From: a bacterium
GTDB lineage: Bacteria > UBA9089 > UBA9088 > JAGUXG01
Assembly: GCA_043798435.1 (NCBI GenBank)
Contig: JAZDOR010000010.1
Span: 1-49,388 of the forward strand
Reading direction: 5' to 3'
Length of the DNA: 49,388 bases
The position numbers and the translations under genes were made by a program. Under the pieces are notes generated by a model. The model made no database searches. It was not told where the DNA came from and saw only the letters and a program-made list of their open reading frames with translations. Numbering within the stretch: the stretch's first letter is position 1; each line of letters opens with the position of its first letter. Of the stretch, positions 178 to 45,037 are shown piece after piece.

Positions 178-3100
178 TTACAACAAATGAATCTCCATAT
201 GATACTCCTGAATGGGTTTTACCTCTATCTTTCCATTTATCAAGGCTGATATGCCATCGGCTGAGGCTAATGCCCCGGGGATGGTAGTGATAATAGGAAT
301 ATTATAGGCATAGGCAGTTGTTCTTATCTTCACCTCATCCTGCCTTGGTCTCTTTCCAGAGGGTGTGTTTATGACTAAGGCTATCTGGCCATTCTTCATC
401 TCGTCTATAATGTCAGGTCTCCCCTCCCCTAAGCGAAATACATTTTCACAAGCAATCCCATGTGACTTGAGAAATTTTGATGTTCCGGTAGTGCCAACTA
501 TAGCAAAACCCATATCAAAAAATTTCTTTGCTACAGGCAACACCTTCTCCTTTTCTCTATCTGTCACGCTGATAAAGACGCTTCCCTTCTTTGGCAGGAT
601 TTGTCCCGCTGCCATCTGTGCCTTAGCAAAAGCCATCCCAAAACTTGAGTCTATGCCCATAACCTCGCCAGTTGACCTCATCTCAGGGCCAAGTATAGTA
701 TCTACCCCTGAAAATCTTGTCCAGGGAAAGACAACCTCTTTGACACAAGCTATGTTTGGTATTATCTCACGAGTGAAGCCAAGATCCTTGAGCTTCTTCC
801 CGATCATTACCTTTGTTGCCAGCCTTGCCAAGGATACACCAATAGCCTTTGAGACAAAGGGTATTGTTCGTGATGCCCTTGGGTTTACCTCCAGGACATA
901 GACCTCATCATCTTTGATGGCATACTGAATATTTATCAAGCCAATCACACCAAGCTCTTTGGCTAAGGAATATGTGTTCTGCCTGATCTTTTCAAGGATA
1001 CCCGCAGAAAGTGTATGTGTTGGAAGGACACAGGCAGAATCACCTGAGTGAACACCTGCATACTCAATATGCTCCATAATCCCACCCAAGACAGTCGTCT
1101 CTCCATCTGAAATGGCATCCGCATCAATCTCAATAGCATCCTCAAGGAATTTATCCACAAGGACAGGATGAGAAGGAGAGGCCTCAACCGCCTCCCGCAT
1201 ATATTTCTCCAAATCTTCTTCATCATAGACAATTTCCATTGCCCGTCCACCTAAAACATAGGAAGGACGCATCAAAACCGGATAGCCTATTTCTTCGGCA
1301 ATCTTTTTTGCCTCTTGTGGGGATGTGCCTGTATCATTAGGGGTTTGCTTGAGCCCGATTTTTTGCAGTAGCTCCTTAAAGCGTTTGCGGTCTTCTGCCC
1401 TGTCTATGGAATCAGTTGAAGTGCCGAGAATTTTCACCCCTGCCTTCTCTAATTGAAGAGCCAGATTTAATGGTGTCTGTCCCCCAAGCTGGATAATCAC
1501 ACCCTCTGGTTTTTCTTTGTCTATAATATTCAGGATGTCTTCCAGAGTCATTGGTTCAAAGTAGAGCTTGTCTGATGTATCATAATCCGTGGAGACTGTC
1601 TCAGGGTTGCAGTTTATCATAATGGATTCAACCCCCTCTTCTTTCAAGGCAAAGGATGCCTGACAGCAACAGTAGTCAAACTCTATGCCCTGGCCTATTC
1701 TGTTTGGTCCACCACCCAGAATGATTACCTTCTTTCTATTGGATGGAGTTGTCTCATCCTCTTCTTCATAAGTAGAGTAATAATAAGGCGTGGTTGATTC
1801 AAACTCTGCCGCACAGGTATCCACTAACTTAAAGACAGGCTCTATGCCCTTGCCTTTTCTGAAACTACGAATAGACATCTCATCTGAGTCTAACAAATAC
1901 GCCAACTGCCTATCGCTAAACCCATATTGCTTAGCCTTTCGCAGTAGTTCACTTGAGATTCGGGGTTCGGGGTTCGGGGATCGGGGATCGGGGATCGGGG
2001 ATCGGGGATCGGGGTTCGGGGATCGGGGATCGGGGGTCAAGGTTCCAGGTTCCAGGTTCAAGGTTCCAGGTTCCAGGTTCAAGGTTATAGGTTCCAGATT
2101 CAAGGTTATAGGTTCCAGGTTCAAGGTTCCAGGTTCAAGGGTCAAGGTTATAGGTTCTAGGGTCAAGGTTCTATGTTCTAAGTTTAAGGTTCTATGTTCT
2201 ATGTTCAAGGTTCTATGTTCTAAGTTTAAGGTTCTATGTTCAAGGTTCAAGGTTCTGTATTCTGGATTCTGAATTCTGAATTCTGAATTCTGGATTCTGT
2301 CTTCTGTCTTCTGAATTCTGGATTCTTCCTCCTGACTCCTGTCTTCTGTATTCTGTATTCTGTATTCTGGATTCTGAATTCTTCCTCCTGACTCCTGTCT
2401 TCTGTATTCTGTATTCTGGATTCTGAATTCTGGATTCTGAATTCTTTCTCCTGACACCTGACCCCTGACCCCTGACCCCTGACCCCTGATCTCTTCCTCC
2501 ATCTCCACAATCTGCCTGATATTCTCCAAAAACCACCTATCTATCTTAGTCAACTGATATATCTCTTCTATTCCCATCCCCATCTTAATCGCCTCTCTGA
2601 TATAAAAAATCCTCTCAGAATTTGGCACAACCAACTTTTCTTTAATCCTCTCTTCTGTATTCTGTATTCTGTATTCTGTATTCTGTATCCTATCCTTTCC
2701 ATCCCCACCAAGCCCTGCTCTACCTATCTCCAAAGACCTCAATCCTTTCTGTAAAGCCTCCTTGAATGTCCTGCCAATAGCCATTGCCTCGCCCACAGAT
2801 TTCATTGAGGTTGTAAGCACATCCGTAGCTTGAGCAAACTTTTCAAAGGTAAACCTGGGAATCTTGATGACGCAGTAATCAATGGTCGGCTCAAATGAGG
2901 CTGGGGTTTTTTTGGTAATATCATTGGGAATCTCATCAAGGGTATAGCCAACAGCCAGCTTTGCCGCAATTTTAGCAATTGGAAAACCAGTAGCCTTTGA
3001 GGCAAGGGCAGAGCTTCTTGATACCCTTGGGTTTATCTCAATCACCACCATCCGACCGTCCTCAGGATTTATAGCAAACTGAACATTTGAGCCGCCTGTC

Positions 3101-3933
3101 TGGACGCCAATCTCACGGATGACAGCAATCGCTGCATCCCTCATCTTCTGGTATTCTTTGTCTGTAAGGGTCTGAGCAGGGGCAACGGTGATGGAATCCC
3201 CTGTATGAACACCCATCGGATCAAGATTTTCTATAGAGCAGATGATGACCACATTATCCTTGACATCACGCATTACCTCAAGTTCATACTCCTTCCAGCC
3301 AAGAACAGATTCTTCAATCAGGATTTCACCAATCATACTTGCCTCTATTCCGGATTGAGAAAACCCGACAAACTCCTCTTTATTAAAGGCAATCCCTCCA
3401 CCTGTTCCACCAAGGGTGAAGCTCGGTCGTATAACCAGAGGAAACCCCAATTCTTCTGCTACTTTCCAGGCATCTTCCATAGTGTATGCCAGCCCACTCC
3501 TTGGCACATCCAAGCCAATCTTCTCCATAGCCTCCTTGAACTGCTTTCTATCCTCTGCCTTTTTGATAGCAGCATAATCCGCACCAATCATTTCAACGCC
3601 AAACCTCTCTAAGATACCCATTTCCGCCACCTTCACCGCCACATTAAGTCCGGTCTGCCCCCCTAAGGTCGGCAGGATGGCATCAGGACGCTCTTTCTCA
3701 ATAATCTTGGCTACAATCTCAGGGGTAACAGGCTCAATATATATTCGGTCTGCTGTCTGTGGATCAGTCATAATCGTAGCAGGGTTTGAATTTATCAGGA
3801 CGACAGAGTACCCCTCTTCCTTCAGAGCCTTGCAAGCCTGAGTGCCTGAGTAGTCAAACTCACAGCCCTGGCCGATGATAATAGGCCCTGCACCTATGAT
3901 TAAAATTTTGTGCAAATCTCGTCGTTTTGGCAT
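178..3933 (-). CDS. carB: Carbamoyl-phosphate synthase large subunit carrying a ~175-aa low-complexity insertion
   Basis: 1251-aa ORF with two ATP-grasp halves ([19 protein letters not shown]; [19 protein letters not shown]) and an MGS-like C-terminus. It is about 180 aa longer than typical CarB because of the repeat-encoded segment at 1961-2499. Confidence 0.95.
1961..2499. repeat. 77 consecutive phase-locked heptanucleotide words inside carB
   Basis: Counted by hand with no indel in the 7-nt register. Word blocks: CGGGGWT x11 (1961-2037), CMAGGTT/ATAGGTT/CTATGTT types (2038-2254), CTGNATT/CTGTCTT/CTGACTC types (2255-2457), CTGACCC (2458-2492). Confidence 0.95.
2648..2689. repeat. Second, short heptamer tract (CTGTATT x5-6) inside carB
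   Basis: ctctctt ctgtatt x4 ctgtatc, translated in frame as [15 protein letters not shown] in a variable linker of the CarB oligomerisation domain. Confidence 0.9.
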
Positions 3934-3973
3934 AATTTTTACCCCTTATTTTTGAATGGTACTGTCAACGACT

Positions 3974-4153
3974 AACCACAGAGTCCACAGAGAAAAACTA
4001 TACCTTTCCTGTTTTTTACTCTGTGCCCTCTAATATTTATATTATCTGAAAGTCTTTAAGCCCATTACTTACCATGCAGAAAATCTTTTTGAGAACATAG
4101 AGTCAGTTCATCTTTAATCTTTAGCTAAAATAAACTCTGTGCCCTCTGTGGTT
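3974..4153. repeat. Inverted-repeat element (CACAGAG words) upstream of carB
   Basis: aaccacagagtccacagag (3974-3992) against ctctgtgccctctgtggtt (4135-4153), 16/19 complementary. An extra half copy lies at 4019-4030. No intact ORF lies between the arms. Confidence 0.6.
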
Positions 4154-4174
4154 TCTTTCATATTTTATCATACT

Positions 4175-4498
4175 TTATTTGACACTACCATAAAAGCCCA
4201 TCCGTCTACACGGTTTTTCAGGTGGTATCATAAGTTGACGAATTACCTCAAAGATTGTCTGAATTTCTTCATCGTGTTTTTCAATCTTTCTTTCAAGTTC
4301 AGTTAACTTATATGCCAGTTCTTTATGCGTTGAAAGGATTTCTCTAAGTTTTACAAATGTCCGCATAATCGCAACATTAACTATAATAGCCCTTTCGCTA
4401 TTAAGAATACTTGAAAGCATGGCTACTCCTTGCTCTGTAAATGCATAAGGTAAATAACGACGACCACCCCAACTTGAGGTGCCAAATTGGCACCTCAA
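4175..4498 (-). pseudogene. ORF6N-domain protein, C-terminal fragment (N-terminal half missing)
   Basis: Contains [31 protein letters not shown], the conserved core of ORF6N/KilA-N-like proteins. The frame opens only about 8 codons upstream and has no ATG. Confidence 0.55.
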
Positions 4499-4573
4499 GA
4501 AATCCTTATATTCTTTTAGGTTCTTTGACTCATCTTACCTTAATCTCCAAATTCTCTTCTATCTCCCCTTCAA

Positions 4574-4780
4574 TCAATCTCGGCAAAAGCATAGCACGGG
4601 TTTGGCGGAAGGTCTGGTTTCATCAGTAATATCCGTTGGAGCAATAAAAGGGAATTCATCACCGAAATATTCTTTAATTGCTGTTGGTGGAGTTTTATCG
4701 GTAACTACTCGACCAATTTCCTTAATCTTTTTTGTTTCCCACCTATTTTCCATAGCACTTTTCCTCATCTCATCCACCAC
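4574..4780 (-). pseudogene. Type I restriction specificity subunit (HsdS) N-terminal fragment
   Basis: W-E-x-KKIKEIGRVVTDKTPPT...FPFIAPTDI matches the start of an HsdS target-recognition domain. The ORF ends after 68 aa. Confidence 0.5.
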
Positions 4781-4786
4781 AATAAT

Positions 4787-5809
4787 TTAGTTTTCCTCAT
4801 ACCCTTCAGGTTCAGGCAAGGGTAGGGAATGCAACTTTTGTTTAAGCAATTTTTGGTCAATAATTTTTGTTTTATAGCTGGCTATCTTCATTGGTGAGAC
4901 TGTTTTGCTCATTGCTATTCGCACAACTTCTTCATCCTTTGACTTACAGAGGATTAGACCTACAGATGGATTTTCATCATTTAGCTTCAGTTTCTCATCG
5001 ATTGCAGCTAAATAAAACTGCATCTTGCCAACATATTCGGGTTTAAACTTTCCAATCTTCAATTCTACTGCTATAAGACACTTCAAGACTCTATGATAAA
5101 ACAACAAATCTACTTTATAGTCCTCGTTTCCAACAGTTACCTTATATTCATCTCCTACCAGTGTAAAATATCTACCAAATTCAAGGAAGAACTGTTTTAA
5201 GTTTCCTACAATTGACTTACGCAAATCTTTTTCTGAAAAATCATCCTTTAATCCAAGAAAGTCAAATATATACTCATCCTTAAAATGTGCCAGGATATTC
5301 TTTTCTTTGGTATAAGGGATTAATTTATCTGCCTTTTTTGAGAGCATAAATCGTTCGTATAAAGAAGAATCAATCTGTCTCTCAAGTTCCCTCTTACTCC
5401 AATTTTCACTTATGCAGGTTTTTAAGTAAAACTCTTTTTCTTCGATGGTTTCTGTATGATGCAATATCATTAAGTTCTGTGTCCACGACAATTCTCTCAC
5501 CAGTGGTGAGAGTTTTTCGTTGTTTTTATAAGTTTCGTAAAATTGTTTCATCCGCCATAAATTTTGAACAGAAAATCCCTTCATATCAGGGAATTCTCGC
5601 TGTAAATCTATAGATAACCTCTCTACAACACCTTCACCCCAATCAGAAATCTCTACCTTCTCATAAATACCTTTACCTATATGAAGATACAATTCAACTA
5701 ATTGCTTATTAACTGTTTGATAGGCCTTTTGGCGAGCAGAGATAATCTCTGCCTTCAATTTGCCAACAAATTCTCTGTATTCATCAGATTTTACAATATC
5801 TCTTCTCAT
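4787..5809 (-). CDS. DUF1016 / YhcG-family PD-(D/E)XK nuclease-like protein
   Basis: 340 aa. The N-terminus (ARQKAYQTVNKQLVELYLHIGKGI, LSWTQNLMIL) and the C-terminal DLLFYH...IAVELK core are typical of DUF1016 proteins embedded in type I R-M loci. Confidence 0.75.
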   Translation of the reverse strand: MRRDIVKSDEYREFVGKLKAEIISARQKAYQTVNKQLVELYLHIGKGIYEKVEISDWGEGVVERLSIDLQREFPDMKGFSVQNLWRMKQFYETYKNNEKLSPLVRELSWTQNLMILHHTETIEEKEFYLKTCISENWSKRELERQIDSSLYERFMLSKKADKLIPYTKEKNILAHFKDEYIFDFLGLKDDFSEKDLRKSIVGNLKQFFLEFGRYFTLVGDEYKVTVGNEDYKVDLLFYHRVLKCLIAVELKIGKFKPEYVGKMQFYLAAIDEKLKLNDENPSVGLILCKSKDEEVVRIAMSKTVSPMKIASYKTKIIDQKLLKQKLHSLPLPEPEGYEEN

Positions 5810-5846
5810 TACCCAACCTCTGTTTCAACCATTTTTTAATATTTCC

Positions 5847-5990
5847 CTATTGAAACTTAGAATCAGCAAAACGCAAGAATATCAATCCCAAAACCGGCTC
5901 GGCGTAATCTGAAGCCTTTAATTTAGAATTAGCCCGCAGATTATCCGCCGCATCCCACAATCTTTGTTCCAAAGACCTTTCTTTTTTCAA
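5847..5990 (-). pseudogene. Type I R-M methylase (HsdM) N-terminal fragment, 47 codons
   Basis: My translation is (M)[46 protein letters not shown], which fits the HsdM_N motif. It starts 1 nt into the carA stop codon. Confidence 0.6.
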
Positions 5991-7080
5991 GCCAAAACCT
6001 CCTTTCTTCTTTTTATCATCTCAGTAAATTCGTTGAATAGATAGCTGGCATCGTGTGGTCCCGGGGATGCCTCCGGGTGGTATTGGACAGAGAAGATAGG
6101 CAGGCTTTTGTGCCTCATTCCCTCAAGGGTCTGGTCATTTAGGTTGATGTGGGTTATCTCTATATCATCAGGCAGAGATTCAATATCCACACAGAAGCCG
6201 TGGTTTTGAGAGGTGATGTCAATCTTTCCTGTTTTCAGGTCTTTGACAGGCTGATTTCCTCCCCTGTGGCCAAACTTGAGCTTGTAGGTTTTTCCACCAA
6301 GGGCTAAACCTAAAATCTGATGCCCCAAACATATCCCGAAGATTGGTAAGCCTGTGCGAATAAGCCTTCTTACTGTATCTATAGCATTTAGAACACCTGC
6401 AGGGTCTCCTGGGCCATTAGAAAGAAAGATACCGTCTGGATTTAGGGCAAGAATTTCATCAGAGGATGTGCTTGCCGGGACTATCGTGACATTACACCCT
6501 GCATCTGTTAGCATTCTGAGAATGTTATATTTTATCCCAAAGTCTATTGCTACTACCTTGAATCGGTAATCGGTAATCGGTAATCGGTAATTTCTTTGCA
6601 GGTTACTTCCTTGACTAAGTCTCTGCCGACTAATCCAGGAGAGGCTTTTGCTTTTGCCACAAGGCTTTCTGGGTCTAAGTCCAATGTTGAGATGACTGCC
6701 TTCATTGCCCCTTGGGTTCTTATATGCTTGGTCAATGCCCTGGTGTCTGTGCCTTCTATACCGATGATATTATGCTCTTTCAGGTAATCAGGAAGGCTCT
6801 TCTTTGCCCTCCAATTACTGTAAATTCTGCTGTATTCTTTAACCACAAACCCTTCAACCTGCGGTCTTTCCGACTCAATATCCTCGTCGTTCACACCATA
6901 ATTTCCTATCAAGGGATAGGTCATGGTTACAATCTGACCTTTGTATGATGGGTCTGTCAGGATCTCCTGATAGCCGCTCATGCTGGTGTTAAAGACTATC
7001 TCACCAGACTTCTCACCGCTTGCACCAAACCCCTCACCCTCAAACCACCTTCCATCCTCTAAGGCAATGATTGTTTTCAT
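5987..7080 (-). pseudogene. carA: Carbamoyl-phosphate synthase small subunit, reading frame broken inside a heptamer repeat
   Basis: ORF 6553-7080 is the CarA N-domain ([24 protein letters not shown]). The downstream frame reads [22 protein letters not shown]...ICLGHQ (GATase domain). The two frames are offset by 1 nt across 6561-6591. Confidence 0.85.
6561..6591. repeat. (AATCGGT)4 heptamer tandem repeat at the carA frame break
   Basis: aatcggt x4 plus aat. The same word builds the hairpin at 36653-36713. Confidence 0.95.
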
Positions 7081-7236: not shown

Positions 7237-7364
7237 ATCCCCTTTTCATTGGGTCGGCTTCAATCTCGAATCTCGAATTGCGAATCTCGAATCTATCTAT
7301 TTCCTATCTTCAGATCCGCAATCCGCGATCCGCAATTCCCGATTTAAACATCCCCTTTTCATTG
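7237..7364. repeat. 19-mer direct repeat pair flanking a heptamer-word segment
   Basis: atccccttttcattgggtc at 7237-7255 and atccccttttcattg at 7350-7364. The segment between them is made of gaatctc and gatccgc words. Confidence 0.85.
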
Positions 7365-7449
7365 TCTTCTCGTGGTTCAACTACCCTCTGGCAAGCCTCT
7401 ATTTTCAAAGAGCTAAGACACCCTTTTCCGTATGGGTCTGATTTTGGCC

Positions 7450-7683
7450 TTATATTAACCCTATTTTTTCCCATATCCCTTTCTTCTCTTGCCTCACCTT
7501 TTTAATCAACTCAATTACCTCTTTCCTGCTCATTGCCTCGGTCTTCTGCTCTAATTCTGCTACAGAGTTACCCTTGTTTAGACCTATCATCTGGAAAAAC
7601 TTGATTGCCTTTATGGGACCTAAGTTCTCATATAAGGTTTCCACCCCTTCCTCTAAAATCTCTTCAGCAATCATTGCATTCAT
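7450..7683 (-). CDS. Small protein immediately downstream of the PIN gene (possible cognate antitoxin)
   Basis: 77 aa. Its start abuts the PIN stop (7683/7684). I recognise no motif with confidence. Confidence 0.45.
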   Translation of the reverse strand: MNAMIAEEILEEGVETLYENLGPIKAIKFFQMIGLNKGNSVAELEQKTEAMSRKEVIELIKKVRQEKKGIWEKIGLI

Positions 7684-8151
7684 TTACTCCACCTCCATCT
7701 CTTCTAAAAAATTCACTGGATTTCTTATCTTGATACTATACCCTAATTTATGTAAATTAGCCTCAAATACTGAAGCATTTTTAGTCAGTTCGTCATCGCA
7801 GGTGAGAAGAAATGTGCAACTTTGCAATGAAGCCGCTATATGTAAAGCATCCATGAAATCCTTCAATTTACAGGCAGATTTAACATCATCCGCCAGCTTT
7901 ATGAGCTGATCATCAACCTGGATTAGTTCAATAGCACTACTATTTATCAGAGATTCAACCTGCTCTTTCTTCTCTATATCTTCAATCAGTGAGACTTCGG
8001 CTATTGCTGCCTCAGAGGTGATTATCTTCAAGAGACCAGCAGATTTCATCAGAAGAAGCTTATTCAAGGACTCAGCCTCATCAAGTATTCTCTCCTGTCT
8101 CAAATCGTCAAATGGTCTACACCATACATTAGTATCCAGATATACCTTCAT
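7684..8151 (-). CDS. PIN-domain protein (VapC-like toxin)
   Basis: MKVYLDTNV N-terminal acidic residue, then SEAAIAEV, DALHIA and LLTCDD acidic positions in PIN spacing. Confidence 0.7.
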   Translation of the reverse strand: MKVYLDTNVWCRPFDDLRQERILDEAESLNKLLLMKSAGLLKIITSEAAIAEVSLIEDIEKKEQVESLINSSAIELIQVDDQLIKLADDVKSACKLKDFMDALHIAASLQSCTFLLTCDDELTKNASVFEANLHKLGYSIKIRNPVNFLEEMEVE

Positions 8152-8190: not shown

Positions 8191-8319
8191 ATCCCCTTTT
8201 CATTGGGTCAAAATACAATGTTCAATTATCAATCTTCAATTATCAATTCCCTCCATCTCTTAATTGATCATTGATAATTGTTAATTGATAATTCTCCTTC
8301 ATCCCCTTTTCATTGGGTC
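8191..8319. repeat. Second 19-mer direct repeat pair flanking a CAATTAT-word hairpin
   Basis: atccccttttcattgggtc at 8191-8209 and 8301-8319, both exact. The inner arms caattatcaatcttcaattatcaatt and aattgatcattgataattgttaattgataatt are largely complementary. Confidence 0.9.
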
Positions 8320-8771: not shown

Positions 8772-8839
8772 CTTACTTTATTCCTCCTGTTCTTACTATA
8801 CCCAAACAAATCAGGTTTGCAAAAATTGTGTTCGTTTAT

Positions 8840-8919
8840 GGTTCTGAGGTTCACGGTTCAAGGTTAAAGAATAAGAAGATTAACCGTGAATCTTGAACCC
8901 TTTAACCCCTGAACCTGAG
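8840..8919. repeat. Heptamer-word inverted repeat (GGTTCAA/GGTTCTG words)
   Basis: ggttctgaggttcacggttcaaggttaaag ... ttaaccgtgaatcttgaaccctttaacccctgaacctgag. Same word family as carB block 2 and as 47779-47865. Confidence 0.8.
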
Positions 8920-16367: not shown

Positions 16368-16558
16368 GTGTAAGAAAAGGGGATAAGGGGATTATTATAG
16401 AGAGATGGGGATAAAATTAAGAATTAAAAATGAATAATCTCCTTATCCCCCTTTTTACACTCTTGCTGTATAACCTGAACGGTTACTAAAAATAGCTATC
16501 AGCTTTCAGGTATTTTTATTGCCTGACTACTGATACCTGATACCTGAATGCTATTTAC
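16368..16558. repeat. Nested inverted-repeat element (GGGGATAAGG arms plus ACCTGAACGGTTAC terminus plus CTGATAC words)
   Basis: gtgtaagaaaaggggataagggga (16368-16391) against tccttatccccctttttacac (16440-16460). aacctgaacggttac lies at 16472-16486 and acctgaatgctatttac at 16541-16558. Confidence 0.8.
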
Positions 16559-17788: not shown

Positions 17789-17860
17789 CTGATACCTGAT
17801 ACCTTTTTTAGGTTTCAGGCTTCAGGTATCAGGTTTCAGGTATTCTATTGACCTGATACC
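17789..17860. repeat. CTGATAC heptamer-word hairpin
   Basis: ctgatacctgatacc ... ggtttcaggcttcaggtatcaggtttcaggtat ... cctgatacc. Confidence 0.8.
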
Positions 17861-24099: not shown

Positions 24100-24243
24100 G
24101 TTTTAACCTCCTTATTTAGTGTATTTAACGATAGAGTTCAGCGGCGGCGTTTACGCCATCCGCTACAACAATTTATTAGGCTTTTAATAGGTAACTGTCC
24201 CTTTTTTATTGTCAACATTTCTTTTGCAATTGACTGAATTTAT

Positions 24244-24520
24244 TGAAGTTATGTAAACTGTTTACTTGCTTTCGTTGTTTACTTGCTTTCGTTTTGAAGT
24301 TATGTAAACTGTTTACTTGCTTTCGTTTACTTGCTTTCGCTTTCTTTACTTGCTTTCGCTTTCGTAAACTGTTTACTTGCTTTCGTTTTTATGTAAACTG
24401 TTTACTTGCTTTTATACTTGCTTTTACTTGCTTTCGTTTACTTGCTTTCTATTTACTTGCTTTCTACTTGCTTTCGTTTACTTGCTTTCTTGAAGTTATG
24501 TAAACTGTTTACTTGCTTTC
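24244..24520. repeat. Irregular array of 14 ACTTGCTTT cores with a 30-nt higher-order unit
   Basis: Cores start at 24264, 24281, 24315, 24329, 24348, 24375, 24404, 24416, 24426, 24440, 24455, 24466, 24480 and 24511. tgaagttatgtaaactgtttacttgctttc recurs at 24244, 24295 and 24490, with a partial copy near 24390. Confidence 0.9.
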
Positions 24521-24535
24521 TTCCCTGTTTATGAA

Positions 24536-31827: not shown

Positions 31828-31871
31828 CTCATTCTGACTCCTGTATTCTGAATTCTGTATTCTTGCTACCT
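31828..31871. repeat. 44-nt copy (43/44 identical) of the 5-prime flank of the four-helix-bundle cassette
   Basis: ctcattctgactcctgtattctgaattctgtAttcttgctacct, compared with 40766-40809 which has C at the capitalised position. Confidence 0.95.
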
Positions 31872-36637: not shown

Positions 36638-36652
36638 TCTTTCACCTCCTTT

Positions 36653-36713
36653 AATCAGGTAATCGGTAACCGGTAATCAGGTAACCGATAACCGATTACC
36701 CGATTACCGATTT
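36653..36713. repeat. CGGTAAT-word hairpin between mvhD and the protease gene
   Basis: aatcagg taatcgg taaccgg taatcag gtaaccg ataaccg attaccc gattacc gattt. The left and right words are complementary. Same word as the carA tract. Confidence 0.85.
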
Positions 36714-38606: not shown

Positions 38607-38771
38607 GTAAGCGTTCAGGTAGTATAAGAAAAAGGGATATGGGGAAGGTTAATAGAAGTCAGAATTCAGGAGTCATGAATTAGAATACAGGAGTCAGAAT
38701 ATTCTTAATTCTGGATTCTGTATTCTGTATTCTGTATTCTCTCTCGTTTAATACATAGCCTGAACGGTTAC
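38607..38771. repeat. 165-bp nested palindromic element with GTAAGCGTTCAGGT/CCTGAACGGTTAC termini enclosing an empty four-helix-cassette scar
   Basis: The termini are at 38607-38620 and 38759-38771. The inner agaatacaggagtcagaat (38682-38700) is the exact reverse complement of attctgactcctgtattct at 40769-40787 and 31831-31849. Confidence 0.85.
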
Positions 38772-40192: not shown

Positions 40193-40391
40193 TTAACTCC
40201 TCCTTATTTTAGATTGCCTATCTTTGAAGCCAAAGGCTTTCCATTAGATTAGGCTTCCTTATATCTCTTATATATTAACTCCGGCCTTAAATATTCCTCA
40301 CCTCCTTGGTGGCATTTTTGGAGCTTGCTAATTAAGATAACATTATCTTATACTTGTTTTGTATCTTTGTCAAGATAATTCTGTAACTATT

Positions 40392-40425
40392 CAGAATACA
40401 GAATTCAGGAGTCAGAATCCAGAAT
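40392..40425. repeat. 3-prime flank of the four-helix-bundle cassette (heptamer words)
   Basis: cagaatacagaattcaggagtcagaatccagaat. It encodes the last 6 aa of the protein and is an approximate inverted copy of 40769-40800. Confidence 0.85.
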
Positions 40426-40770
40426 AGCCCCAGAGTAAGATTCTAATAATTTGCTGACTTCTTCGAGTAGGAGCAATAGTTTTGAAGAATCACCATACTC
40501 CAAATCATTAGCCAGGATTAAGTAATAACGAGACTCTTCTAATGACCCTTGAGCTATATTTAAGTAGCGAACCTTGTCCGCCCTGCCTTTTTTCTTAAAT
40601 CCCTCGGCAATATTTGCGGGAATTGAGGCTGCCGATCTTCGAAATTGAGATGTCAAACCATACATTTCCTCTTTAGGAAACTTTCTTGTAAAGATATAAA
40701 TATTCAGAACAAACTGATGGGCTTTTTGCCACACAATCAAATCTTGAAAACTGCGTGCAGGTTCTCTCAT
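40405..40770 (-). CDS. Four-helix-bundle protein (23S rRNA intervening-sequence protein family)
   Basis: FQDLIVWQKAHQFVLNIY, SQFRRSAASIPANIAEG and AQGSLEESRYYLILANDLEY are hallmark motifs. Confidence 0.85.
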   Translation of the reverse strand: MREPARSFQDLIVWQKAHQFVLNIYIFTRKFPKEEMYGLTSQFRRSAASIPANIAEGFKKKGRADKVRYLNIAQGSLEESRYYLILANDLEYGDSSKLLLLLEEVSKLLESYSGAILDSDS

Positions 40771-40809
40771 TCTGACTCCTGTATTCTGAATTCTGTCTTC
40801 TTGCTACCT
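40766..40809. repeat. 5-prime flank of the four-helix-bundle cassette
   Basis: ctcattctgactcctgtattctgaattctgtcttcttgctacct. It contains the gene's ATG and is 43/44 identical to 31828-31871. Confidence 0.95.
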
Positions 40810-42464: not shown

Positions 42465-43265
42465 TTAGCGTGTTTCGTAGTCTCCTTTTGCAGCGACCAG
42501 GACTTCTTCCTGTATCTTCTGAAGCTGGGATGAAATGGTAGCATCTATTATCCCAAACCCTGTCTGAACCTTGCATCCACCCTGTTCAATGGAAGGGTCT
42601 TCTCTAATATCTATCCTTTTGCCTCCTGAACTCTTCAAAATCCTTTCCTTCCATTCTGAAGCCACCTCAAAATCAGCAAGATTTACTAAGACCGTTATAC
42701 TTTCCTCGGAAAGCCCCCTTTTTATCGCCATCTCTATGTTGGACAAGACAACCTTTTTATTGCCTTTTATCTCCTCCTTTATTATCTTTTCAGCAATCAT
42801 TATGGCCAGCCCAACTACAACCTCCGCCTCTGCCTTCTTTGTTGCCTCTTCATATACCTTGGATAATGAGGAGAGCGTATTAGTAAAACCAGTAATAAGC
42901 CTGTTCGCCTCTATCTCTCCCTTTCTCTTTCCATCCGCCCTTCCCTCATCAAACCCTTTTTTGAAGGCTGAATCAGTTATCTCGGAAACCTTCTTCTTTG
43001 CCTCTTCTTCTGCCTTCCTGATTATATCTTCACACCTCTTTTCCGCTTCCTTTCTTACATAGCCTTCTACATCAGAAAGCACCCTGCTCCTTTCTTCTAT
43101 CTGATTATTTATCTCTAAAAGCCCTTGTTCTGCTACCCGTATCTTATTTTCAAGCCTCTCAATCAGATTCCGTCCTTCTCCTAAACCAGAAAATGCCTTT
43201 GGGTCTATGACTACATCCGAACTTAGAACAGGCTGCTTATAAACGCTATTCAATGATTGACTCAC
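42465..43265 (-). CDS. fliH: Flagellar assembly protein FliH-like
   Basis: Lies downstream of fliG. Long charged coiled coil, then KKGFDEGRADGKRKG and LAIMIAEKIIKEEI. GTG start inside repeat unit A. Confidence 0.65.
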   Translation of the reverse strand: MSQSLNSVYKQPVLSSDVVIDPKAFSGLGEGRNLIERLENKIRVAEQGLLEINNQIEERSRVLSDVEGYVRKEAEKRCEDIIRKAEEEAKKKVSEITDSAFKKGFDEGRADGKRKGEIEANRLITGFTNTLSSLSKVYEEATKKAEAEVVVGLAIMIAEKIIKEEIKGNKKVVLSNIEMAIKRGLSEESITVLVNLADFEVASEWKERILKSSGGKRIDIREDPSIEQGGCKVQTGFGIIDATISSQLQKIQEEVLVAAKGDYETR

Positions 43266-43682
43266 CTCCTTTCCAGTAGCGACTAATCATAATCTCGTCC
43301 TGTTCCTCTAATTGCCTAACCACAACTATTATCTTCTGTTGAGCCTCTTCTACTTCGGAGAGTCTCATCGGTCCAAGGCAGGAAATCTCCTTATTCAATG
43401 ATTGACTCACCCCCTTTGCCACCCCGACTAATCATAATCTCACCCTGCTCTTCTAATTGTCGCACTACAACTATTATCTTCTGTTGAGCCTCTTCTACTT
43501 CGGAGAGTCTCATCGGTCCAAGGCAGGAAATCTCCTTATTCAATGATTGACTCACCCCCTTTTCCACCCCGACTGATCATAATCTCACCCTGCTCCTCTA
43601 ATTGCCTAACCACAACTATTATCTTCTGTTGAGCCTCTTCTACCTCGGAGAGTCTCATCGGTCCAAGATAGGAAATCTCCTC
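43246..43682. repeat. Tandem triplication (3 x 145 bp) of the fliG 3-prime end / fliH start junction
   Basis: The anchor attcaatgattgactcac occurs at 43248, 43393 and 43538. The units are more than 90% identical by eye. Confidence 0.95.
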
Positions 43683-44965: not shown

Positions 44966-45037
44966 GACACAGATTAACACTGATTTCCACTGATAAAATT
45001 TAAAAATTATCTGTGTTCATCTGTGTAAATCAGTGTC
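44966..45037. repeat. Inverted copy of the element at 23-94
   Basis: gacacagattaacactgatttccactgataa ... ttatctgtgttcatctgtgtaaatcagtgtc. The arms are 28-30/31 identical to the arms of 23-94 in reverse orientation. Confidence 0.85.

Follow-up and report, generated by a model that had tools for sequence, protein, structure and literature searches.

A long, frame-keeping tract of heptanucleotide repeats inside a bacterial carB gene

Introduction

How does a tandem repeat whose unit is not a multiple of three come to occupy the interior of a core metabolic gene, and what would keep the gene readable once it is there? This question is raised by a contig of 49,388 nucleotides from an uncultured bacterium (JAZDOR010000010.1, assembly GCA_043798435.1; analysed over its whole length and hereafter called the window), on which carB, the gene for the large subunit of carbamoyl-phosphate synthase (CPSase), carries about 0.5 kb of head-to-tail 7-nt words. 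Non-triplet repeats are usually thought to be excluded from coding DNA, and here a 7-nt family makes up a segment of ~170 residues of a core enzyme. A preliminary description, made from the letters of the window, had presented the tract as an isolated case, with the STRR (short tandemly repeated repetitive) elements of heterocystous cyanobacteria as its known parallel. We find that it is the longest case in our searches of a little-described habit in several bacterial lineages. It can probably be explained by a genome-wide family of heptanucleotide simple sequence repeats (SSRs) that was expanded by slippage at a permissive CarB loop and filtered against frameshifts and stop codons, leaving a low-complexity insert.

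Heptanucleotide units are described as the commonest long SSRs in many bacteria and have been attributed to polymerase slippage (Mrazek and co-workers 2007, as cited in PMC4679880 and PMC4692102). The same two papers describe non-triplet SSR units as under-represented in open reading frames (ORFs).

Results

A loop of CarB is filled by 77 consecutive heptamers

Positions 1961–2499 of the window parse into 77 consecutive 7-nt words without a single indel, as the preliminary description had claimed. The parse is borne out by a lag-7 autocorrelation of 0.80, against 0.16–0.33 at lags that are not multiples of 7, and by four period-7 arrays called by Tandem Repeats Finder (TRF; 1960–2035, 2037–2255, 2253–2445 and 2450–2489). 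The tract thus consists of head-to-tail 7-nt copies well above chance, as expected of a heptanucleotide SSR. Our word inventory also reproduces the four dialects reported before (11 words of CGGGGWT type, 31 of CAAGGTT type, 28 of CTGNATT type and 4–5 of CTGACCC), which are laid out block by block in Table 1. On the coding strand a skeleton AA....G is common to all blocks (of the 77 words, 66 begin with A and 72 have G as their seventh letter), and blocks 4 and 3 are bridged by intermediate words such as GAGTCAG and AAGACAG. Read in the carB frame, the words give 7-aa repeats, PDPRSPN among them, just as had been stated. A strict lag scan of the whole window returned nine tracts at lag 7 and at most one at each other lag from 4 to 12.

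The host gene has the complete architecture of a CPSase large subunit. Pfam recognizes the CPSase_L_D1, D2 and D3 and MGS domains, and its two ATP-grasp halves, oligomerisation domain and allosteric domain of MGS type are arranged collinearly with those of solved CarB structures. Its residues 1–485 align with residues 1–479 of E. coli CarB, and residues 659–1248 with residues 484–1072 (both E = 0). Because E. coli CarB aligns on both sides of the insert and the Pfam architecture is complete, the ~170 extra residues can be placed in a single oligomerisation-domain loop, between E. coli residues 479 and 484, in agreement with the domain named at the outset. The preliminary description had proposed alignment to profiles or structures as a means of fixing the borders, and had put the insert at about 175 residues. 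Once aligned, the order of size stands and the upper border shifts: the last one or two words (2486–2499) code for EEEIR, which is native and conserved, and the repeat itself accordingly extends over ~1959–2489. We refer to this loop as site 2. The spacing from IVEMEEEI to LLRKAK is 180 residues in the window CarB; across 80 other carB loci the gap at site 2 is 6–66 nt, measured between two flanking query segments and hence slightly narrower than the IVEMEEEI–LLRKAK interval.

A second heptamer tract occupies another variable carB loop ~60 residues upstream in the protein (site 1; Table 1). It had been missed by the preliminary description, as had a tract in carA that is discussed below. Site-1 tracts are also present in two relatives (L001 and L012).

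The reading frame is kept clear of 24 stop triplets

The coding strand of the tract contains 24 stop triplets, 18 of which lie in one phase and 6 in another, with none in the phase of carB. When the words were shuffled over the whole tract, the carB frame stayed open in 0.01% of 20,000 permutations, and in 0.005% when shuffling was confined to blocks. No minus frame except that of carB can be read through the whole tract; the remaining two are open over the CTGNATT block alone, as had been pointed out before. The blocks differ in how they accommodate the frame. A 7-nt unit regains its frame only every three units, and block 2, whose words are able to form TGA, TAG and TAA, fits a period of 21 (88% matches by TRF) better than one of 7 (77%). 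The words of block 3 can form no stop in any frame, two other ORFs traverse it, and its super-period is 56 nt, which is not a multiple of three. The presence of a 21-nt super-period in the stop-capable block and its absence from block 3 would be expected if only stop-free alleles of a length divisible by three survive. Three-unit super-periods that hold stops out of frame are a clear mark, left in the sequence, of how a 7-nt repeat can persist in a coding region. If arrays grow freely and only alleles without a frameshift or in-frame stop persist, the tract must be read by ribosomes, and we infer from these frame statistics that it is translated. The argument for a filter on translatability, which the preliminary description had based on the open frames, is strengthened by the stop phases, the shuffles (at most 1 in 10,000 open) and the contrast between super-periods of 21 and 56 nt.

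The same numbers bear on a possible assembly artefact, in which all or much of the tract would have arisen, or been given a wrong length, when the reads were put together, possibly by joining reads from several heptamer loci; the true carB tract would then be short. A chimera would rarely keep a frame open over 539 nt in the face of that many stop triplets. Exact repeats inside the tract do not exceed 41 nt, nor matches to the remaining window 28 nt, so ordinary reads of 100–150 nt could resolve the order of the words; the 41-nt limit makes a collapse or expansion artefact less likely. In-frame tracts of 195 and 249 nt in unrelated assemblies (see below) point the same way. What speaks for an artefact is that the tracts of relatives at site 2 reach no more than 61 nt, that the tract words also occur at other loci of the window and make cross-locus joins conceivable, that carA shows a one-unit miscount or variant, and that the junction is found in no independent assembly. 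Taking both sides together, we regard an artefact as rather unlikely.

The insert is a polar, low-complexity segment

Only 22% of the insert residues are hydrophobic, compared with 41% in the remaining CarB, and C, W, M and A are absent from it. We expect the insert to be a low-complexity segment of ~170 residues, with an abundance of E, R, P, L, T, N and Q, that is probably disordered; the polar and charged composition fits, without proving, a disordered loop. An AlphaFold prediction (CarB residues 1–1200, alignment of 22 sequences) gave predicted local distance difference test (pLDDT) values of 22–37 for the insert, in a model that is poor overall (mean pLDDT 55) and shows no confidently folded structure for the insert.

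It is conceivable that the tract never reaches the functional protein, being removed or skipped as intron-like RNA, as an intein or by translational bypass, with a CarB of normal size as the result. In the minimum-energy fold of the mRNA, the tract does show weak pairing between its G-rich 5′ block and its C-rich 3′ block. However, this fold is no more stable than those of shuffled sequences (z = −0.75), and we rejected pairing of the end blocks as a structure, as it does not exceed chance. A self-splicing intron or other structured RNA was likewise rejected on the grounds of the fold and of the Rfam search, in which no match reached the gathering score anywhere in the window. No Hint/intein domain was found by Pfam, all of whose matches were CPSase and ATP-grasp domains; the insert consists purely of heptapeptide repeats, without Hint-domain splicing blocks or intein motifs, and intein identity was rejected too. 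Moreover, an excised element would need no open frame, yet the frame is strongly preserved. Removal of the tract is therefore extremely improbable.

Shorter heptamer tracts recur at the same loop in relatives

Among the 5.8 billion proteins searched, the closest CarB sequences are 78–79% identical to that of the window, have lengths of 1074–1091 aa and are all without a large insert. Several matches at ~70% identity are named Candidatus Desantisbacteria, and others come from unclassified metagenome-assembled genomes (MAGs). We found no exact-protein record of the window CarB, no locus in the genome collection searched that is closer than the known relatives, and no copy of the tract junction in the metagenome contigs searched.

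In Desantisbacteria-like MAGs and in a Poribacteria MAG, the site-2 loop contains tracts of 15–61 nt (2–9 units) whose words differ from those of the window. These comprise (AAAATCG) x4.7 in L001, (GAATTGC) x8.7 in L002, (ATTGCGG) x4.6 in L081 and L085, (AGAAGTC) x4.9 in L082–L084, which share an identical protein (P0012) across three independent samples, and (GAATTCG) x5.7 in the Poribacteria MAG (L012). Across 85 loci we counted 12 heptamer tracts of at least three units within carB, eight of them in the site-2 loop, two at site 1, and one each near residues 729 (L057, which accordingly does not map to site 2) and 1029. Several loop peptides of relatives represent translated heptamer repeats, as the DNA bears out (RIADCGLRI, EIRNSKLEIRK, KIQNSKFKIQN and GQGSGV(R), the last of which corresponds to block 4). 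GQGSGV stands at site 2 in the aligned proteins P0005, P0009, P0015 and P0016, and its DNA basis is seen in L003; a short tract of this type in Desantisbacteria-like CarB is a possible precursor of the window tract.

Orthologous loop sites differ between species in both length and words (the matches include no variants of the same species). The window tract is by far the longest at this loop, and to that extent the claim of an exceptional tract stands; that it is isolated does not, because heptamer tracts also occupy this loop in relatives and are found in frame in other enzymes. Site 2 is a position at which heptamer arrays either land repeatedly or repeatedly survive.

Two further loci of this survey deserve mention. 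An apparent 4.9-kb carB in an Omnitrophota MAG (L028, 6001–12649) was rejected, as it consists of two tandem carB paralogues. In a Methylomirabilota MAG (L030, 3929–4521), seven different heptamer arrays lie within 600 nt directly downstream of carB, the densest cluster among the loci examined.

Heptamer-coded inserts are found in other enzymes

A wider search used the insert peptide as the query and found matches with RTLNLEP or RIQNTEY runs. Metagenomic enzymes other than CarB carry in-frame tracts built from words that also make up the carB tract. A metagenomic UDP-GlcNAc 2-epimerase contains a 195-nt tract of AACCT type with 18 stop triplets, none of which is in frame. Its super-unit, CGAACCT-TGAACAT-AGAACCT, is again 21 nt long, and three versions of the epimerase carry roughly 4 to 9 units of RTLNxEP type at one site. 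The longest in-frame tract outside carB (249 nt) is in an RluD-like, pseudouridine-synthase-like protein; a FlgH protein, an acyltransferase and a four-helix-bundle protein were matched as well. The array (AATACAG) x4 is present in at least 120 metagenome contigs, and 15 of 120 such tracts among the matches listed lie within ORFs that extend to either side of the tract for 60 codons or more.

Among the matches listed, Pfam confirmed enzymes around eight tracts. Heptamer tracts are in frame in ABC ATPases and a sulfatase, and are also found in a CCA/poly(A) polymerase and a spermidine-synthase-like protein. A radical-SAM/SPASM protein has a heptamer-coded insert and TsaD has two. A PGM/PMM enzyme on a metagenome contig (L169) has three separate multi-word inserts, one of which reads ISHQSLVIGKE twice, with another also present in two copies.

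The tract words are shared across the window, and one tract splits carA

Approximately 14 heptamer loci lie in the 49 kb of the window, three in genes (two in carB, one in carA) and the rest intergenic, so that the family shows the many dispersed, mostly intergenic arrays typical of SSRs. The intergenic inverted arms (8217–8293, 17789–17843, 36652–36712, 38654–38740 and 40389/40769) belong to word families that match those of carB and carA. Five copies of the 11-mer CTGACTCCTGT are present, two in the carB tract and one each at 31834, 38687 (minus strand) and 40772, where 0.01 copies would be expected by chance. The preliminary description was thus right that the words of the tract also build intergenic repeat arms.

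As assembled, the carA ORF is split exactly at its tract, (ATTACCG) x4.4 on the coding strand, and one added unit would yield a CarA of 366 aa. Both halves are ~80% identical to the intact CarA of L001 (L001 414–1526), which itself contains two in-frame tracts, KIQNPKFKIQNPKF at the same inter-domain linker and FEFPISNFQFPI in the amidotransferase domain. The split may reflect an OFF variant, a heterogeneous population or units miscounted in assembly; whichever the cause, it illustrates what non-triplet repeats can cost a gene. Since this tract breaks a frame, our confidence in exact unit counts is tempered. The interval between carA and carB (3934–5986, ~2 kb) holds a gene for a YhcG-type PDDEXK nuclease (4787–5809) and a small ORF (4175–4498); in L001, carA and carB adjoin each other.

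Does carB still matter to its host? If it were a decaying or redundant copy, repeat expansion would go unpurged while carbamoyl phosphate, arginine and pyrimidines were obtained otherwise. The frameshift in carA as assembled and the ~2 kb with an unrelated nuclease gene between the two genes would suit such decay. Against it, carB carries no lesion besides the tract, is 78–80% identical to relatives over its full length with hundreds of invariant columns conserved, and has catalytic domains that score like those of functional enzymes; the non-randomly open frame of the tract adds to this. We consider decay very unlikely. The surrounding DNA is that of an ordinary chromosome (its genes include typA, prfA, MTHFR, fliFGH and pilM), and carB is presumably essential in this organism.

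The state of carA also calls to mind phase-variable SSRs, in which slippage changes the number of units and switches expression, as described for the 7-bp repeats of Haemophilus hmw (PMC8262952, PMC2651432). A tract one unit out of frame resembles an OFF allele of such a contingency locus. The known contingency loci differ in having mostly surface or restriction functions, and the hmw repeats are located in promoters. Could the tracts nevertheless be adaptive, either as a disordered spacer with an effect on the interface of the CarB tetramer or on the recruitment of partners, or as contingency switches in carA and carB for carbamoyl-phosphate synthesis? The insert is located in the oligomerisation domain, all three in-gene tracts of the 49-kb window belong to carA or carB, perfect runs of 4–5 units are present, and exactly one more unit would make the carA frame whole, both halves being otherwise undamaged. 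On the other hand, words and lengths at the site vary freely among relatives, as one would expect if the loop is tolerated and has no conserved function; the long tract is mostly imperfect, which lowers slippage; and known phase-variable loci mostly serve surface or restriction functions and not core biosynthesis. An adaptive role is accordingly improbable in our judgement, and the insert is probably tolerated rather than needed.

Discussion

We consider it probable that the carB tract is a member of a genome-wide heptanucleotide SSR family that was expanded by slippage at a permissive CarB loop and filtered against frameshifts and stops, producing a low-complexity insert. It would have started as a short array of GTCAGGG type in the permissive loop, common to other Desantisbacteria-like genomes, and would have grown to ~76 units in this lineage by replication slippage or unequal recombination. 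Point mutation would have diversified the words during growth, and all alleles that had shifted the frame or placed a stop in it would have been lost to selection. Under this scheme the insert itself is likely to be neutral.

The cyanobacterial STRR sequences are one relative of this family, and a precedent for repeats that lie in a variable part of an essential gene and leave that gene functional, yet as a parallel they are too narrow, given that heptanucleotide SSRs are widespread in bacteria with occasional copies in ORFs. STRRs are reportedly found inside the RNase P RNA gene of heterocystous cyanobacteria (Vioque 1997), and their canonical units are reported to be CCCCAGT, TTGGTCA and CAACAGT (Mazel 1990). 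Both systems consist of dispersed heptamer tandem repeats. Unlike in the RNase P case, the host gene here encodes a protein, hence the constraints of the reading frame, and the host is not a heterocystous cyanobacterium, its CarB relatives being Desantisbacteria-like. Tandem dimers of the three canonical units are absent from both strands of the window, and the heptamer words of Beggiatoa, Xanthomonas and Nostoc form no tandem dimers in it either.

In general terms the family resembles the long heptanucleotide SSRs of bacteria, with many loci per genome, an intergenic bias, typical arrays of ~4–5 units and slippage as the proposed mechanism. It differs in its long, multi-word, frame-locked array in a core enzyme, which is not described in those SSR surveys as far as the two papers cited above report them. 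The TAACTGA repeats of marine Beggiatoaceae are also genome-wide and mostly intergenic, with a minority in ORFs, where the stop-free orientation reads LSVISYQ (PMC4679880). The likeness extends to the 7-aa repeats within ORFs. The Beggiatoaceae repeats differ in using a single word and in that their in-ORF cases are mostly short hypothetical proteins, with neither a stop-avoiding 21-nt super-period nor a 0.5-kb array described. More broadly, the heptamer-repeat literature examined describes no core enzyme with an array of several heptamer words locked to its frame, and no paper combining 'Desantisbacteria' with 'tandem repeats' was found in the literature searched.

Two other systems share the tolerance of inserted sequence. 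Tandem repeats also arise within the ORFs of Borgs, where they leave the frame intact in every case and contribute fast-evolving peptide repeats of low complexity that are mostly disordered (PMC9879509). Similarly, the carB ORF is undisrupted and the addition is polar, charged and of low complexity, as its hydrophobic content and the pLDDT values of an admittedly weak model suggest. Unlike Borg units, which are divisible by three, the unit here is 7 nt and only the 21-nt super-unit of block 2 is so divisible; furthermore, the words recur at other loci, and the host is a chromosomal housekeeping gene. Plasmodium falciparum CPSII, an essential enzyme, contains large lineage-specific insertions of unknown function between its catalytic domains (PMC13232951). 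The tolerance of insertion is alike, and the differences are that this enzyme is eukaryotic and its insertions are not built of heptanucleotides.

Four points weigh against our explanation. The 0.5-kb version and its exact length are known from one assembly, with no second assembly of the same species in the searched collections. The unit that carA lacks implies either that repeat counts in the assembly may be wrong or that tracts inactivate genes. The low pLDDT of the insert is weak evidence for disorder because the whole model is poor. Finally, identical words at many distant loci are not fully explained by purely local slippage, which leaves room for a copying mechanism. Such a mechanism, common to all arrays, might write or copy them and seed permissive loops of core enzymes, creating disordered segments and a central metabolism that can be switched by frameshift, with carA caught in the OFF state. 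It is suggested by the recurrence of words across loci, by the AA....G or AAT-type skeleton, by the preference for arrays of 4–5 units and by hairpin cassettes bracketed by the 19-mer ATCCCCTTTTCATTGGGTC (see below). We see this as an unlikely alternative, though somewhat less so than an artefact or an adaptive role, and expansion by slippage under a coding filter is the explanation that we favour.

Since the CarB loop and further housekeeping enzymes are affected in several uncultured lineages, heptamer arrays may be a general, overlooked route to low-complexity or disordered regions in bacteria, and essential pathways may suffer unnoticed frameshift mutations from them. In practical terms, gene calls can be interrupted by such tracts, as happened in carA, proteins can come out too long, and quality checks of MAGs can be misled.

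Further features of the window

The coordinates of all heptamer loci and of their host genes are compiled in Table 1.

Table 1 Heptamer tracts of the window and the carbamoyl-phosphate synthase genes that contain them
Feature	Position	Strand or context	Description
carB (carbamoyl-phosphate synthase large subunit)	178–3933	minus	intact ORF, 1251 aa (ORF list, structure match, Pfam)
Site-2 heptamer tract	1959–2489	minus	in-frame insert; oligomerisation-domain loop between IVEMEEEI and LLRKAK
Block 1	1961–2037	minus	11 x CGGGGWT (coding AWCCCCG); encodes PDPRSPN-type repeats; template strand G-rich
Block 2	2038–2254	minus	31 words: CAAGGTT, CCAGGTT, CTATGTT and related (coding AACCTTG etc.); 21-nt super-period
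Block 3	2255–2450	minus	28 words: CTGNATT, CTGTCTT, CTTCCTC, CTGACTC; 56-nt super-period; all three minus frames open
Block 4	2451–2489	minus	CTGACMC x5–6 (coding GGGTCAG); encodes GQGSGVRGQ
Site-1 heptamer tract	2653–2688	minus	(TTCTGTA) x5.1, 100% matches, in frame; second variable carB loop
carA glutamine-amidotransferase half	5987–6552	minus	+2 frame relative to N-terminal half
carA N-terminal half	6553–7080	minus	stop directly after heptamer tract
carA heptamer tract	6561–6591	minus	(AATCGGT) x4.4, perfect (coding ATTACCG); inter-domain linker; one unit short of in-frame length
Heptamer pair	7262–7343	intergenic	AATCTCG / ATCCGCA arms, 24 nt, 79% complementary; direct ATCCCCTTTTCATTGGGTC copies at 7237 and 7350
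Heptamer hairpin	8217–8293	intergenic	TCAATTA / TAATTGA arms, 32 nt, 81% complementary; 19-mer ATCCCCTTTTCATTGGGTC at 8191 and 8301
Heptamer arms	8834–8919	intergenic	AGGTTCA / TGAACCY; carB block-2 word family
Heptamer hairpin	17789–17843	intergenic	CTGATAC / GTATCAG; related short tract 16530–16547
Heptamer tract	31831–31863	intergenic	carB block-3 word family; includes CTGACTCCTGT
Hairpin	36652–36712	intergenic	GGTAATC / ACCGATT; carA-tract word family
Hairpin	38654–38740	intergenic	CAGAATA / TATTCTG; block-3 family; CTGACTCCTGT on minus strand
Two arms	40389–40426 and 40769–40801	intergenic	block-3 family; up to 93% complementary over 27 nt; 343–363 nt apart

Two of these loci, together with their flanking copies of the 19-mer ATCCCCTTTTCATTGGGTC, form cassettes (7237–7368 and 8191–8319) on either side of a small two-gene module on the minus strand (7450–8151). 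The ATCCCCTTTTCATTGGGTC-bracketed pair looks like a cassette boundary or a mobile unit.

Repeats of other kinds were also noted. A second family of small repeats with a 10-nt period, represented by the motifs TAGACACAGA, CACAGAG and ACACTGATTA, is located around gene ends (1–100, 3960–4160 and 44967–44994). An intergenic array at 24243–24521, in which ~13 copies of TTTACTTGCTTTC are interspersed with GAAGTTATGTAAACTG, looks like a set of iterons. At 43246–43681, the last ~48 codons of fliG and the junction with fliH are present in tandem triplicate (145 nt x3, 91% identity), which yields two extra ORFs of 58 aa that repeat the FliG C-terminus.

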